Positions 21,056 through 35,050 of a stretch of DNA of 64,000 nucleotides are shown in pieces. Every line of letters starts with the position of its first letter. The first letter of the stretch is position 1. Source of the DNA: Candidatus Fermentibacterota bacterium (lineage in GTDB: Bacteria; Fermentibacterota; Fermentibacteria; Fermentibacterales; JCC-6); assembly GCA_963845085.1 (NCBI GenBank), contig CAWJQI010000005.1, positions 256,001-320,000 on the forward strand, read 5' to 3'. The notes under the pieces were generated by a model that did not search any database, was not told the origin of the DNA, and saw nothing but the letters and a program-made list of their open reading frames with translations. Made by a program: the position numbers and the translations under genes.

Positions 21056-21316
21056 TCACTGCGAGCCCAGGATGGAGTCAACGGCGTGGACGCGTGCGCC
21101 GGCCCCGGCTGCAGCACTCCGTGCGTCGTCAATCACCCCTGTGGGAACCGGTGGAGTGGCAATCCCGTTGATCGCTTCCTGCGCTTCGATCACCTCGACG
21201 ACCGTGGAAGCGGGAGTTGCCGCCGTTGAGTCCCCATCCCCCGAATCACCGCATGCACAGAGGAGAACCACTGCAAGAACAGCGGGAACAACGGGTCTCA
21301 AGGCTGCGGTCATCAC
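21056..21316 (-). CDS. Small lipoprotein
   Basis: LCAC lipobox; overlaps upstream stop. Confidence 0.55.
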   Translation of the reverse strand: MMTAALRPVVPAVLAVVLLCACGDSGDGDSTAATPASTVVEVIEAQEAINGIATPPVPTGVIDDARSAAAGAGARVHAVDSILGSQ

Positions 21317-22008
21317 CGGAAGACCGCCTTGATGGCGCCAAAGGTTGCAGCCCGAAGAGTCTGGGGGGCCAGAATGACCTGGAAATTGTCGGCGAGGATC
21401 GATGGAATTTCCTCCTGGTAGAACAAGGCGAAACCGCTGAGACCGCCGCCCAGCCTGTACTGGGAATCAACGATCTGTGCTGTCTGTTCTCCATCGATGT
21501 TCAGGGTGAGCTCAACATCGGAGCCCACGTTCTGAAGGGTCAGCCTGACATTCACCCAGTCATCGGGGGTCACCGTGGGGCCGTATCCGCTGTAAAGCAG
21601 CTCGTAGTCGCCCGTAACGCTTACGTAACCGATATAGGCGTAGGAGAAGGGTTGAAGGAAAACGATCACACCCCCAACGTATGCCTCTCCCGTGGTGATC
21701 TGCAGCCTTGCGACAACGTTTGCCAGGCTGCCCGTGCCGTTTGGATTGAAGTCCATCGAGACCGAGCCGTTGTCCCAGAAGCCCGCCGCAGTGCAGAGGT
21801 AGCCAATGTAGGCCGAGTCGGGGAAGAAAGCCTCAATGACCTGGTCCCCGCCCTGCTCGGTCACCAAAGTGTACCCCCCGGTCTCTTCGCGGGTCCAGTT
21901 GCCGGAGGATTCCGGGTCATCCCCGGGAGTGTAGGATTCAAAGTCGTCAAGGAAGTCACCGAACACAAGCCCGGTGAGAACCATCAGCACCAGCCCTGCA
22001 AGTTTCAT
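21313..22008 (-). CDS. Secreted beta-sandwich (ConA/LamG-like) protein with C-terminal TFGAIK motif
   Basis: Signal peptide, DDFESY...ADNFQV, ends LRAATFGAIKAVFR. Confidence 0.65.
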   Translation of the reverse strand: MKLAGLVLMVLTGLVFGDFLDDFESYTPGDDPESSGNWTREETGGYTLVTEQGGDQVIEAFFPDSAYIGYLCTAAGFWDNGSVSMDFNPNGTGSLANVVARLQITTGEAYVGGVIVFLQPFSYAYIGYVSVTGDYELLYSGYGPTVTPDDWVNVRLTLQNVGSDVELTLNIDGEQTAQIVDSQYRLGGGLSGFALFYQEEIPSILADNFQVILAPQTLRAATFGAIKAVFR

Positions 22009-22376
22009 GCCCCCCCCTTGTCATTTTTCACAGGATATCACAGGTGAATATACTGCAAAGGGACGGCATTCCCCCCGAGCCTGTTACATGATTCCGGAGT
22101 TCAGCCCGCTTCCTGGTGGCAAATGCCCTGAAGAGCGTCGAGGAAACAAGGCACAGAGTTTATTCATTCACCGACACTCCGGTTCTTCATCCCGTTGCAA
22201 ACCGGAGTTTCGGAGTTGCCGAGATCAGGTTCAGTCTTCCCGAACCTGTTCCGGTTGATTGCATAATGATCGTGCGATGGCCTCTGCCCGCTTCGCTGTC
22301 AGTCGCTTCTTGATTCCCCCTGCAATCCCTCATTGTTATACTTGGCAGAAGAACACCTCCTGAAGGGAGCCATGCG

Positions 22377-31429: not shown

Positions 31430-32044
31430 TCAGTTCTGAGCTGCCTTGATCTCGGCCCAGCTGCCGCCTTCCAGACTGTAGGGTGAATAGGTCACAACAA
31501 GGGTCGGCAGCAGGTCTTCGTGGCCCGAGTCCTTCGACCAGAAACCCGGGGCGCAGTTTCCTGTGGTTCCGGTCGAAGTGCAGTAAATACCGTGATTGGG
31601 GTGCGCTCCGCTTACCCATGCTTCGACAAACTGGGTCACATCCACACTGAACCAGCTCTGCGCTACGGGCCAGGAACCGCCGACAGACGGCTCCGGGTCG
31701 ATTGACGGCTGGGTGTTCAGGGTAACGGTCTGTTCATCCCAGTCCTCCCCGATCAGCTGGAAAACCGGCTGTCCGCTCGCAGAACCGAAAAAGCTGATGC
31801 AGTAAAGCCTCATCTCCGCGGATTCCACAACGGCGTCCTGGGGAATCGCCGACAGATCCCATTCGACAAGCGTTCTGTCCAGACAGCTTGAGTATCGCCC
31901 GAAGTAAAGGTGCGTGGGACCGCCGTTCGGATTTGTGGAATCGGGCTTGCAGTCGCAGATGTATGCATCCTGCGAGGCCGTTATCTCAACCACTTCCGCT
32001 GCGGCGACCGCAGCGATTACAAGAATTGAAAATGCCACCCTCAT
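31430..32044 (-). CDS. DNRLRE/TGF-beta-propeptide-like domain secreted protein with C-terminal SWAEIK motif
   Basis: DAYI...PDSTN...RTLVEWDLSAIP...A.MRLY...W.E..VT.N..P...PTLVVTY; ends GGSWAEIKAAQN. Confidence 0.75.
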   Translation of the reverse strand: MRVAFSILVIAAVAAAEVVEITASQDAYICDCKPDSTNPNGGPTHLYFGRYSSCLDRTLVEWDLSAIPQDAVVESAEMRLYCISFFGSASGQPVFQLIGEDWDEQTVTLNTQPSIDPEPSVGGSWPVAQSWFSVDVTQFVEAWVSGAHPNHGIYCTSTGTTGNCAPGFWSKDSGHEDLLPTLVVTYSPYSLEGGSWAEIKAAQN

Positions 32045-32200: not shown

Positions 32201-32977
32201 ATGCAGCGGGAGAATCACTCCGAAAACCTTCCGGAATGCTTCACCTTCCTGCGGGAAGAGCTGTCAAAGGCCGACAGAGCCACCGGTTCCAGAAGAAAAC
32301 TGGCAGCGGCCCTCGGTGTTTCAACGCACACCCTCCAGAGGCTGCTGACCGGCACAGACCTTCCCGACCTCGCAAGGGAAAGATCGTCCTATGTCCGGAG
32401 CTCATGGACCAGAACCCTGACCAGGATGGCACTCGGGCTGGGGATAGACCCGGAAAGGCTCCTCAGGTCCGCCTGCATCGAGCCCGATGCACACAGCCTT
32501 TCACTTGTGAACTCCGAAAAGGCAAAGTTCGGCATGCGGTCCCGAAAGCAGAGCGAGGCAGGAAGCATGCCCGACCTGGCGGGCTTCATAATGGCCCTCG
32601 CAGGCTCCTGGCCGGGCGCAGGAAGCGCCCCTGGAAGCGAGGCCCTGCAGAGGCTTCAGGAAGCGATTGCGCAGTTCCTCGTTGCAACCGGATCGACTCC
32701 TCCCGGGCTTGCCGACGGAAGCGATCTCTCCGGTGGAAGCTTCTGCCGGTCGTGCATGGCGTCGCTTACCGATACCGAGAACCGCGGCGCATCGGATCAC
32801 TTCTGCAGATGGTGTTCCGACGACGACGGCAACCTTCGGTCAGCCGAAGAGGTGCACGGCATACTCACGAAATGGTTCATGCAATGGCAGAAGGGAATTA
32901 CGGGAAGCCAGGCGGCCGAGAGGGCAAGACACTACATGCTTGCAATGCCCGCATGGACCCTAAACTCCGGGCTCTGA
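32201..32977 (+). CDS. HTH protein with C-terminal zinc-ribbon domain
   Basis: RKLAAALGVSTHTLQRL helix-turn-helix; FCRSCM...FCRWC...MPAW. Confidence 0.7.
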   Translation: MQRENHSENLPECFTFLREELSKADRATGSRRKLAAALGVSTHTLQRLLTGTDLPDLARERSSYVRSSWTRTLTRMALGLGIDPERLLRSACIEPDAHSLSLVNSEKAKFGMRSRKQSEAGSMPDLAGFIMALAGSWPGAGSAPGSEALQRLQEAIAQFLVATGSTPPGLADGSDLSGGSFCRSCMASLTDTENRGASDHFCRWCSDDDGNLRSAEEVHGILTKWFMQWQKGITGSQAAERARHYMLAMPAWTLNSGL

Positions 32978-33019
32978 CCGCCCCGGGGCATTCCTTCAAC
33001 TCACCACTTATGCCGTCAT

Positions 33020-33562
33020 CTATTCGGTGATCAGGGTGATCACTGGAAGGTTCTCGGATGCCGTGCCGCGCGTCGCGCGAAGGTCCATCGAGGAGAGGTA
33101 TCTCCGCCCCGGTGCGGTCCAGCCGTACACGTAAAGGTAACCCGATACCGACCCGAAGCGAAGATCAAGAAGAAGGTCGCCACCCTCGTACTCCCACGGT
33201 GTGTCGAAGGTGAAGACCACCATGCCGTTCTCGTCGGCTTCTACCTCAAGGACGCTGCTCGTCAGAACCTGGGCCGATGACGTCATGTTCTCTTCGAAGT
33301 CGGGACCGATCTCGCTCCCGCCGCTCGACCCGATCCGAACGACGGCATTTCCGATCACCGCTGACTGGTCGCCCGAGGGCGCTCTGTGAAAGGCGAACCC
33401 GGAAATGGTCACGGGTCCGGGCATTTCTTCTTCAGGCACCGCCAACTGGCAGTGAATTGTCGAAGAGCCTCAACCGCCGCAGAGAGGCTCTCCCAGGGGA
33501 AAACCGTTTTCCCCGATCGTTATGGTGCCGGCCATCAGGGCCAGGGTGATAAGCTCGTGCAT
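33020..33562 (-). CDS. Putative secreted selenoprotein with CGGU (CxxU) motif, 180 aa
   Basis: GGAGG RBS + ATG 33562; MHELITLALMAGTITIGENGFPLGEPLCGG-TGA(33472-33470)-GSSTIHCQLAVPEEE continues in frame into ORF 33020..33445; SECIS-like hairpin follows. Confidence 0.75.
33437..33454 (-). promoter_or_regulatory. Bacterial SECIS-like hairpin (CGGU gene)
   Basis: CACUGCC-AGUU-GGCGGUG, 7-bp stem, 15 nt 3' of UGA. Confidence 0.6.
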
Positions 33563-33628
33563 TGTTCCTCCAGGGTGATTGGTTCAAGGCGTTGGAAAGT
33601 ATACAACTCCCGGTACTTCATCATTCCA

Positions 33629-35050
33629 TCATCCCCTGCCTGCGGGCTCCGCCACGGGCACAGCCACGCACGGCTGTTCCTCTGGCCTCTCCACCAGAAC
33701 CATGGTCCTCCACGGCCCCTTTCTGTATCTGATGAAGTATCCCGCGGCAAGCAGCGCAACGTAGAGGATCGTGAAGAGCCACAGGGAAACAACGGTCACT
33801 CCGGGGCGCCGGTAGATCAGGAAGATGCCAGGGACCCAGAACAGCCACCCCAGACACGAAGCGAGAATCATCACGAACCGTGTGTCACCGGACCCGCGAA
33901 GGGCGCCTCCGAGCATCAGGCTGACTGCGTCGAAGCCACCCCATAGGCAGAGTATGGCAAGCAGCGTGGTGCCCGTCGCCAGGAGCTGGTCGAAAGGCAC
34001 ATCAGACTCGGGGCTTCTGAAGATCGACATGTACATTCCAGGAAGAAGCAGGAAAGTTGACGCTATGGCGGCAAAATACAGAAGGGCCACGACAAGCGTT
34101 CTTCGCGTGACCCGTGCAGCCATCTCGTGGTTCCTCGCGCCCTGGTAGCGGCCGACGAGGATGGTCGTGGTGATGCCGAAACCCAGAAGGGGGTGAAAGG
34201 CCAGGTTGTTGACCCCGAACGCGATGTTGCTGGCCGTGAACTCAACGGGCGACATCTTCCCGGTGAGGAAGACGAAGACGGAGAAGCTGGCTACGTCCAT
34301 AAATACACTGACGGCCGACGGAAGGCCGTATCTGAGGGTCTTCCCCGCCTGGGCCCTGTCAAGTCGAAAGTGGCTTCGTATGGGATACTCCCGGGATATC
34401 TTTCCCCGAAGGGAAAGCGAAATAAGCACAGCGGCGGGAACGAACGAACTTATGGCTGTGGCGAGCCCGGCGCCCTCGATTCCCATCTCGGGAAAACCGA
34501 GCCTGCCGAAAATGAACAACCAGTCCAGAAGGATGTTCAGCGCTGCGCCCGCAATCCCCGCCGCCATGGTTACCGTGGTTCTTCCAAGGCCGCTCCAGAG
34601 GGATGCAGCTCCGGCGTTCAGAGTGGATCCCACCCCGGCAACCATCATCCAGCGGAAATACGCCGTCTCGAGGGAGAGAACCCGTGGAGTGTGGCCTCCC
34701 AGCCGCAGGATCAATTCCCCGGGGATGACCAGGGCCAGAAGCAGCGGCGCTGAGAGAAGGGCAAGCATGACGCCCTGTGCGTACGAGACCGCCACACCGC
34801 GGTCGTTCCCTGCCCCGTGGTTCTGGCTGACGAATGTTGATGCGTAGCCCGCCGCCCCCTGAAAGAGGCAGATCAGGGTGAAGGCGAGAATGCCTGCCGG
34901 AAGCGCAGCCTGCAGTTCCCACACGCTGTGTCTCGCAAGGAACATCCGGTCGCAGAACATCATCGTTGTCTGGGCCGCCATGCCGGTGATGACGGGCAGC
35001 GCTACTCCCAGTATCTCCCGGTAACTCCCCGGGCTCTGCAGTTTGCTCAT
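33629..35050 (-). CDS. MATE family efflux transporter
   Basis: About 12 TM; ALP...CDRMF, LNILLDWLFIFG..GFPEMGIEGAGLAT, GALRGSGDT. Confidence 0.93.
   Translation of the reverse strand: MSKLQSPGSYREILGVALPVITGMAAQTTMMFCDRMFLARHSVWELQAALPAGILAFTLICLFQGAAGYASTFVSQNHGAGNDRGVAVSYAQGVMLALLSAPLLLALVIPGELILRLGGHTPRVLSLETAYFRWMMVAGVGSTLNAGAASLWSGLGRTTVTMAAGIAGAALNILLDWLFIFGRLGFPEMGIEGAGLATAISSFVPAAVLISLSLRGKISREYPIRSHFRLDRAQAGKTLRYGLPSAVSVFMDVASFSVFVFLTGKMSPVEFTASNIAFGVNNLAFHPLLGFGITTTILVGRYQGARNHEMAARVTRRTLVVALLYFAAIASTFLLLPGMYMSIFRSPESDVPFDQLLATGTTLLAILCLWGGFDAVSLMLGGALRGSGDTRFVMILASCLGWLFWVPGIFLIYRRPGVTVVSLWLFTILYVALLAAGYFIRYRKGPWRTMVLVERPEEQPCVAVPVAEPAGRG

Follow-up and report, generated by a model that had tools for sequence, protein, structure and literature searches.

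The window analysed here is a stretch of 64,000 nucleotides from a Candidatus Fermentibacterota bacterium (assembly GCA_963845085.1, contig CAWJQI010000005.1, our C5, positions 256,001 to 320,000), and the gene of interest occupies positions 33020 to 33562 of its minus strand. The gene runs in one frame from an ATG at 33562 to a TAG at 33022-33020 and codes for 180 amino acids; its sole interruption is an in-frame TGA at codon 31 (33472-33470), which we read as selenocysteine (Sec). The TGA stands in the context P-L-C-G-G-[TGA], with Cys28 three codons before it, and this Cys-x-x-Sec (CxxU) motif covers 33470-33481. On the same strand, a GGAGG ribosome-binding site lies 4 nt 5' of the ATG (33567-33571), residues 1-11 (33530-33562) form a short hydrophobic leader whose hydropathy and low pLDDT point to a probable signal peptide, and a SECIS-type hairpin is found at 33437-33454. 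Residues 12-180 (33023-33529) are predicted by AlphaFold to form a jelly-roll β-sandwich, which ends with no C-terminal tail. A gene for a MATE-family transporter (33629-35050, minus strand) lies directly upstream, while the convergent gene at 32201-32977 on the plus strand weakly matches a helix-turn-helix and ends in a Cys-rich segment resembling a zinc ribbon.

The standard ORF call misses the first part of this gene, as it begins at a TTG (33445) located downstream of the TGA. An earlier note, made from the letters of the window, had set against this weak start the GGAGG-led ATG at 33562 with its in-frame TGA, and both the reading of the frame and the comparison with orthologs bear it out. 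Indeed, codons 1-30 are conserved as protein, with 19-20 of the 30 residues identical in all six orthologs and third-position changes the commonest, and a GGAG or GGAGG site precedes the equivalent start in each of the six. Conservation on both flanks of the TGA, a check set beforehand, is seen in the orthologs as well. The public protein sets contain 13 matches, all of them N-terminally truncated forms of 104-148 aa, one of which carries the name Candidatus Fermentibacteraceae; thus, the family has been hidden because gene callers cut its genes at the UGA. Scans for other signals gave little: the sigma-70 promoter scan returned no matches, the terminator scan returned one terminator-like match within the gene, at chance level, and Rfam had no matches over 32800-33800 at E up to 1.

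The gene belongs to a family that is widespread in its lineage. The genome holds eight members, seven with a TGA at the aligned site and one with Cys, and the protein matches 35 of the 41 genomes searched, namely this genome and all 34 others of the same order, with up to about nine matches per genome and none in the six distant genomes. From a sample made of 30 matched loci, 60 further regions and this genome, which represents part of the listed matches, 119 genes were recovered, and 114 were retained after five partial, frameshifted or contig-edge cases were dropped. At the aligned site, these 114 Fermentibacteria genes have 106 TGA and eight Cys codons (TGC or TGT), with no other codon and no second in-frame TGA; this is the Cys or aligned TGA at residue 31 that the earlier note had expected of homologs. 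The motif takes the form CxxU in 99 genes, SxxU and CxU in three each, CU in one, CxxC in seven, and CC in one, and further CxxC homologues exist beyond this set. The Sec position is steadier than that of the first Cys, as illustrated by the three SxxU genes and by the homologues that have Cys at the Sec position only (P0034, P0057, P0065, P0066, P0104 and P0114). The presence of Trp, Arg or Gly at this site, which the note had named as evidence against its reading, was found in a single protein record, P0166, which has Arg and comes from a 1.6-kb contig. A quick tree of the family is compatible with either a single or multiple origins of the Cys forms.

Outside the Fermentibacteria, the family thins out rapidly. 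A scan of GTDB contigs, in which 80 loci were kept, named Fermentibacteria and then one WOR-3 locus, followed by weak matches from Bacteroidota, Spirochaetes and Cloacimonadota that have no motif. Among 121 WOR-3 genomes, 13 match, and in seven of them the protein has a CxxU encoded by TGA; the TGA genes span two families and more of one order, plus WOR-3. A search of the ESM Atlas, for which the query was a natural Cys homologue instead of the window protein, led to Fermentibacterota clusters, and a scan of metagenome contigs with the single window protein yielded no confirmed locus.

The hairpin that follows the TGA provides the next line of evidence. It begins 15 nt 3' of the TGA, as the earlier note had proposed, and consists of a 7-bp stem closed by an AGUU loop (33447-33444) at +23; it overlaps the codons of His37-Cys38-Gln39-Leu40-Ala41-Val42. 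According to the legend of Fig. 2 in PMC13188914, bacterial SECIS elements have a loop of 3-9 nt, a stem of 4-16 bp, a G in the first two loop positions, and a loop placed 16-37 nt after the UGA, with a minimum free energy of −7.5 kcal/mol or lower. The window hairpin agrees with all four constraints given there, and the 60 nt that contain it have a minimum free energy of −21.0 kcal/mol. The folding z-score is −2.85 for the 53 nt from the UGA, −1.04 for the 40-nt piece alone, and −2.0 against synonymous recoding. With a conserved Gln codon as the anchor, 102 of the 106 TGA genes show an AG[G/U]N loop closed by a stem of 6 bp or more, and so do none of the eight Cys genes, which are related to each other and come from a few clades; because the hairpin overlaps a conserved strand, its loss in the Cys genes is partly tied to the amino-acid change. 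The stem shows compensatory pairs, with pair 2 being C-G in 79 genes and U-A in 22, and pair 3 being A-U in 94, G-U in seven, and G-C in five; the window gene has G-C at pair 3 instead of the usual A-U, and its orthologs show G-U. Three of the four TGA genes missing the standard hairpin share a YQVLV strand with the WOR-3 members, whose TGA genes have a shifted hairpin with a 3-nt loop that folds in six of seven cases. In the whole genome, this hairpin type is present at only 20 of 81,997 TGA trinucleotides, a control that is partly circular as the pattern was taken from the family itself; six of the 20 have a Cys codon three codons upstream, with 0.8 expected, and all six are family genes.

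The machinery needed to decode this signal is in place. The genome encodes selA, selB, selD (itself containing a TGA) and tRNA-Sec, and selA was matched in all 32 Fermentibacteria searched, two of the matches being partial. In WOR-3, selA was found in the three searched genomes that have a TGA member vs neither of the two that have only Cys-free homologues. TGA terminates 327 of 510 long ORFs and is the main stop codon, for which reason genetic codes 4 and 25 were rejected. We consider it very improbable that translation truly ends at this TGA, that the TGA arose by a nonsense mutation or a read error, or that the codon is reassigned genome-wide to Trp or Gly: the databases do call a short downstream ORF and one homologue has Arg at the site, but the same TGA recurs in 106 genes plus WOR-3, both of its flanks are conserved as protein, and it aligns with Cys, not with Trp or Gly, in a genome where it is the main stop. 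Based on these sequence comparisons, the gene almost certainly codes for a selenoprotein, its in-frame TGA being read as selenocysteine; the CxxU motif and SECIS element of the earlier note are supported by the TGA/Cys alignment, the hairpin and the Sec machinery alike.

Some observations made along the way concern the selenoproteome at large. A coding-potential scan for the whole set of selenoproteins missed the window gene and gave an output that was mostly noise. The genome also has four exported Omp28-like genes with a U-x-x-C motif, located at C4:684491 (−), C4:51751 (+), C5:499718 (−) and C5 with the TGA at 786648 (+); these resemble NF045500 only distantly, with scores well under its cut-off, and two of the three scanned have a type IX secretion system (T9SS) tail above the cut-off. 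In addition, ARAGORN called a 90-nt tRNA-Gly with anticodon ACC at C5:968841-968930; such an anticodon is uncommon in bacteria, and the call may be spurious.

Regarding the structure, the AlphaFold model built from an 82-row alignment has a pLDDT of 94 and a pTM of 0.88, and describes an all-β sandwich with one short helix, in which the CxxU motif sits in the loop before strand 36-42. The best structural match is the N-terminal domain of the carbohydrate esterase PbeAcXE (7TOG; Z 10.7, rmsd 3.2, 149 residues aligned), and others are phage tail and baseplate domains, the Cwp84 lectin-like domain (4CI7, Z 9.9) and the PHR domain (3GBW, Z 9.7), with many CBM32-type modules at Z near 6. Across the PbeAcXE, Cwp84, PHR and CBM32 matches, the rmsd goes from 3.2 to 3.9 and the sequence identity from 8 to 14%, and a search of PDB sequences gave no matches. 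No thioredoxin-fold entry appears among the best 50 structural rows, which alone is no test; the model itself differs from that fold, which is α/β and has its motif where a helix begins, and it shows the jelly-roll β-sandwich typical of galactose-binding-like and carbohydrate-binding modules (CBMs). The protein is therefore predicted to fold as a CBM-like jelly roll, and the suggestion of a non-thioredoxin β-sandwich made in the earlier note finds support in both the model and the structural matches.

Domains of this type without the motif are common. A profile search collected 8,096 clusters at E up to 0.001, and among the best 150, the loop has no Cys in 374 of 432 domains of long or three-repeat proteins and has two Cys in only two of them. 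In a sample of 22 such proteins, the domain accompanies CBM96, PKD, Ig and T9SS domains. This distribution suggests that a widespread surface module acquired the Sec motif in a lineage-specific way. A long ORF of this genome (C5:58000-66000) also contains a weakly matching jelly roll (E 0.08) that has no Cys.

Export is well supported by sequence features for the family and less so for the window copy. Most family leaders have 16-17 residues, and 94 of 114 have Lys or Arg within the first five residues; moreover, 90 of 114 members have a [TS][FW]GxIK tail within their last 30 residues (strict pattern), which a second structure model renders as a helix. The same tail ends 32 ORFs of the genome vs two in a control window, is described by no model in the libraries scanned, and is found on proteins that mostly have signal peptides. 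SprA-like and PorV-like genes are present in the genome, and all seven WOR-3 TGA members end in what appears, by eye, to be a T9SS-like extension, which fell below model thresholds in the one member scanned. Tail-type ends also occur on two other minus-strand genes of the window, at about 21313-22020 and at 31430-32044, the latter encoding a DNRLRE/CBM96 protein that has Cys residues close to the N terminus.

The window gene belongs to a clade of 11 members (SH-aLRT 100, quick tree) from which the tail is absent. The window gene and its six orthologs, the seven-member core of this clade, have a leader of 11 residues with a hydrophobic core and no Lys or Arg, and have Cys38 in place of a Tyr; the subfamily adds His37 and Cys38 near the motif. 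Leader hydropathy in the window gene is 2.59, compared to a family median of 2.88. The short uncharged leader, the missing tail and the other atypical traits make export less certain for this copy than for the family, so that the claim of an exported protein made in the earlier note stands for the family, where it is backed by typical signal peptides, the conserved C-terminal tail and the T9SS-like tail of WOR-3, and is probable, but short of firm, for the window gene. As for its location, the tailless subfamily is likely soluble in the periplasm rather than sorted to the surface.

The neighborhood of the family offers a hint about its partners. Nearly all Fermentibacteria genomes (33 of 35) have a near single-copy gene for a NapH/NosR-like membrane ferredoxin (PF12801), and at 27 of 30 loci it is immediately preceded by a family gene of the same orientation; counting three more genomes where the linkage was read from coordinates, 30 of 33 genomes have the PF12801 gene next after a family gene. 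Its product has a signal peptide and an exported N terminus with Cys-rich repeats, and no FMN-binding domain was detected in it. The protein, encoded in this genome at C4:763928-765298, carries two to four such exported repeats with a DxDxD segment, and the scans gave no model match for these repeats. According to the part of PMC8238504 available to us, PF12801 proteins likely carry electrons through the membrane, either to extracytosolic enzymes or from them. The window gene is not linked to the PF12801 gene, the former being on contig C5 and the latter on C4; in the tailless clade it is the MATE gene that adjoins, both in the window and at seven of the 10 other loci. Likewise, a search of five WOR-3 genomes with TGA members, run without a positive control, found no PF12801 gene. 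A possible second route of reductant to the envelope is given by a CcdA-like gene (C5, about 10 kb from selAB) that adjoins a gene for an exported thioredoxin with a CxxC motif. Searches of this genome, which is 88% complete, found neither DsbB nor VKOR.

Taken as a whole, the best explanation, to which we give an even chance, is that of an exported jelly-roll selenoprotein whose Cys-x-x-Sec loop is redox-active outside the cytoplasm; the redox role of the loop, taken by itself, we would put at even or just under. A redox-active selenol is favored by the PF12801 linkage together with the retention of the Sec position where the first Cys is lost, which also speaks more for a reactive residue than for a structural bond. 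In such a mechanism, SelB would bind the hairpin and insert Sec, and the protein would cross the inner membrane; the selenol may then attack an oxidized sulfur target brought to the variable loop, such as a disulfide, a persulfide or polysulfide, or a peroxide, and Cys28 would resolve the adduct to give a selenenylsulfide. The loop could be re-reduced by the NapH/NosR-like membrane ferredoxin found beside other family members, or by the CcdA/thioredoxin pair. Against this role, the predicted fold is like that of binding modules without catalytic activity, and no residues emerged as catalytic partners; besides, the window gene is apart from the ferredoxin gene, which was not found in the five WOR-3 genomes.

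Three other uses of the loop deserve attention, since the same traits can be read in different ways. Binding of a soft metal or metalloid (Cu, Zn, Hg or As) for scavenging, delivery or sensing, with no redox cycling, strikes us as unlikely but worth keeping in mind: Table 1 of PMC13188914 lists CxxU in a putative mercuric transport protein and in BtuF, the tailless subfamily has His37 and Cys38 near the motif and lies beside a MATE exporter, and the many paralogues with varied loops would suit different ligands. The SxxU and single-Cys homologues would, however, be short of one ligand, the conserved neighbor of the wider family is a protein of the electron-transfer type, and Cys38, which lies in a predicted strand and replaces Tyr, makes the G-C pair of the hairpin and may thus reflect selection at the RNA level. 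Somewhat less likely again, the protein may be a lectin or adhesin whose ligand loop is held in place by a structural Cys-Sec bond, as the nearest folds are binding modules, the Cys-free domain is repeated in large surface proteins with Ig, PKD, CBM96 and T9SS domains, and a selenenylsulfide would survive in a reducing envelope lacking disulfide-forming enzymes, in line with the DsbB and VKOR result. Such a bond is impossible in members with only one Cys or Sec, the domain, judging by thousands of clusters, folds in its absence, and the ferredoxin linkage is left unexplained.

We regard as improbable a selenol that forms lasting covalent links to other proteins or surfaces, as in a cross-linked coat or a covalent adhesin. 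One near-invariant reactive residue on a binding-type fold is what this would call for, and the up to nine matches per genome and the 32 tail-bearing proteins suggest an abundant envelope class; yet in 99 of the 106 Sec members such links would be resolved by the Cys that is retained three residues from the Sec. The redox-active loop remains our preferred reading. Its boldest extension, which we hold to be rather unlikely, is a selenium redox layer in the Fermentibacteria envelope, where diversified Cys-x-x-Sec reactors on a sugar-binding-type scaffold would be fed by the NapH-like ferredoxin and would handle extracytoplasmic polysulfide or elemental sulfur, by either reduction or shuttling, with the tailless copy acting as a soluble periplasmic shuttle. 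In the parts available to us, PMC5030696 and PMC5763382 portray these bacteria as fermenting anaerobes whose habitats are often rich in sulfur; the former proposes sulfur or polysulfide reduction, and the latter reports no sulfhydrogenase in Sabulitectum and few oxidative-stress defences. We take this literature as context for the polysulfide idea and not as support for it.

How this family relates to known systems can be seen at several levels. It shares with other SelB/SECIS-decoded selenoproteins the in-frame UGA, the downstream hairpin, the Sec/Cys pair, the CxxU motif and the full Sec machinery, and it differs from them by having several paralogues per genome and export signals. Most characterized selenoproteins have a thioredoxin-like fold, as stated in PMC13188914, a review of 2026 seen in part. 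The thioredoxin-fold CxxU/UxxC selenoproteins, including the Omp28-related GOS_C (NF045500), also have a two-residue-spaced Cys/Sec motif near the N terminus, and the hairpin position in the four exported Omp28-like genes of this genome is similar to that of our family; the difference lies in the fold, here predicted to be all-β with the motif in a loop. The galactose-binding-like jelly rolls (7TOG, 4CI7, 3GBW and CBM32) resemble the prediction over the whole domain, but with the low identities given above, and the literature examined makes no mention of a Sec motif in these modules. Finally, the NapH-like systems (PF12801; PMC8238504, as far as available) similarly have a membrane Fe-S protein genetically linked to exported proteins, whereas here the linked proteins are selenoproteins, the ferredoxin has exported Cys-rich repeats, and the window gene is unlinked.

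The catalogues consulted point to an uncatalogued family, in line with the new family that the earlier note had thought possible. Table 1 of PMC13188914, with a stated total of 119 selenoprotein families and subfamilies, has no fitting entry and none named for a carbohydrate-binding or jelly-roll domain, a few rows that have no Pfam or NCBIfam model being compared by name, and the terms Fermentibacter, lectin, carbohydrate and signal peptide do not occur in its text. Pfam and NCBIfam gave no matches for the query, and 82 members gave only single-member noise at E above 0.03. In the accessible parts of the other sources, BSepDB (PMC13326102) lists Fermentibacterota genomes and searched known families only, and deep-Sep (PMC12013277) does not mention these phyla. 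Our literature search found no description of the family, although its scope did not include the candidate lists of Haft and Tolstoy 2025 and of Deng et al. 2026 (groundwater), which could contain it. The evidence supports an uncatalogued family, on a scaffold unlisted for selenoproteins, that is decoded by known rules.

What this family adds to the view of these bacteria is a CxxU motif on a predicted binding-module scaffold with export signals, present throughout an entire candidate phylum with as many as nine or so copies in a genome. As the Cys-free version of the domain is common, the family is a clear example of how a selenium site can arise on a fold without catalytic activity. The short tail of the Fermentibacteria members is likely a sorting signal, given the subfamily that lacks it and the T9SS-like tail found in its place in WOR-3, and the link to the membrane ferredoxin would provide a concrete and testable route for extracytoplasmic selenium redox chemistry in abundant anaerobes of digesters and sediments.
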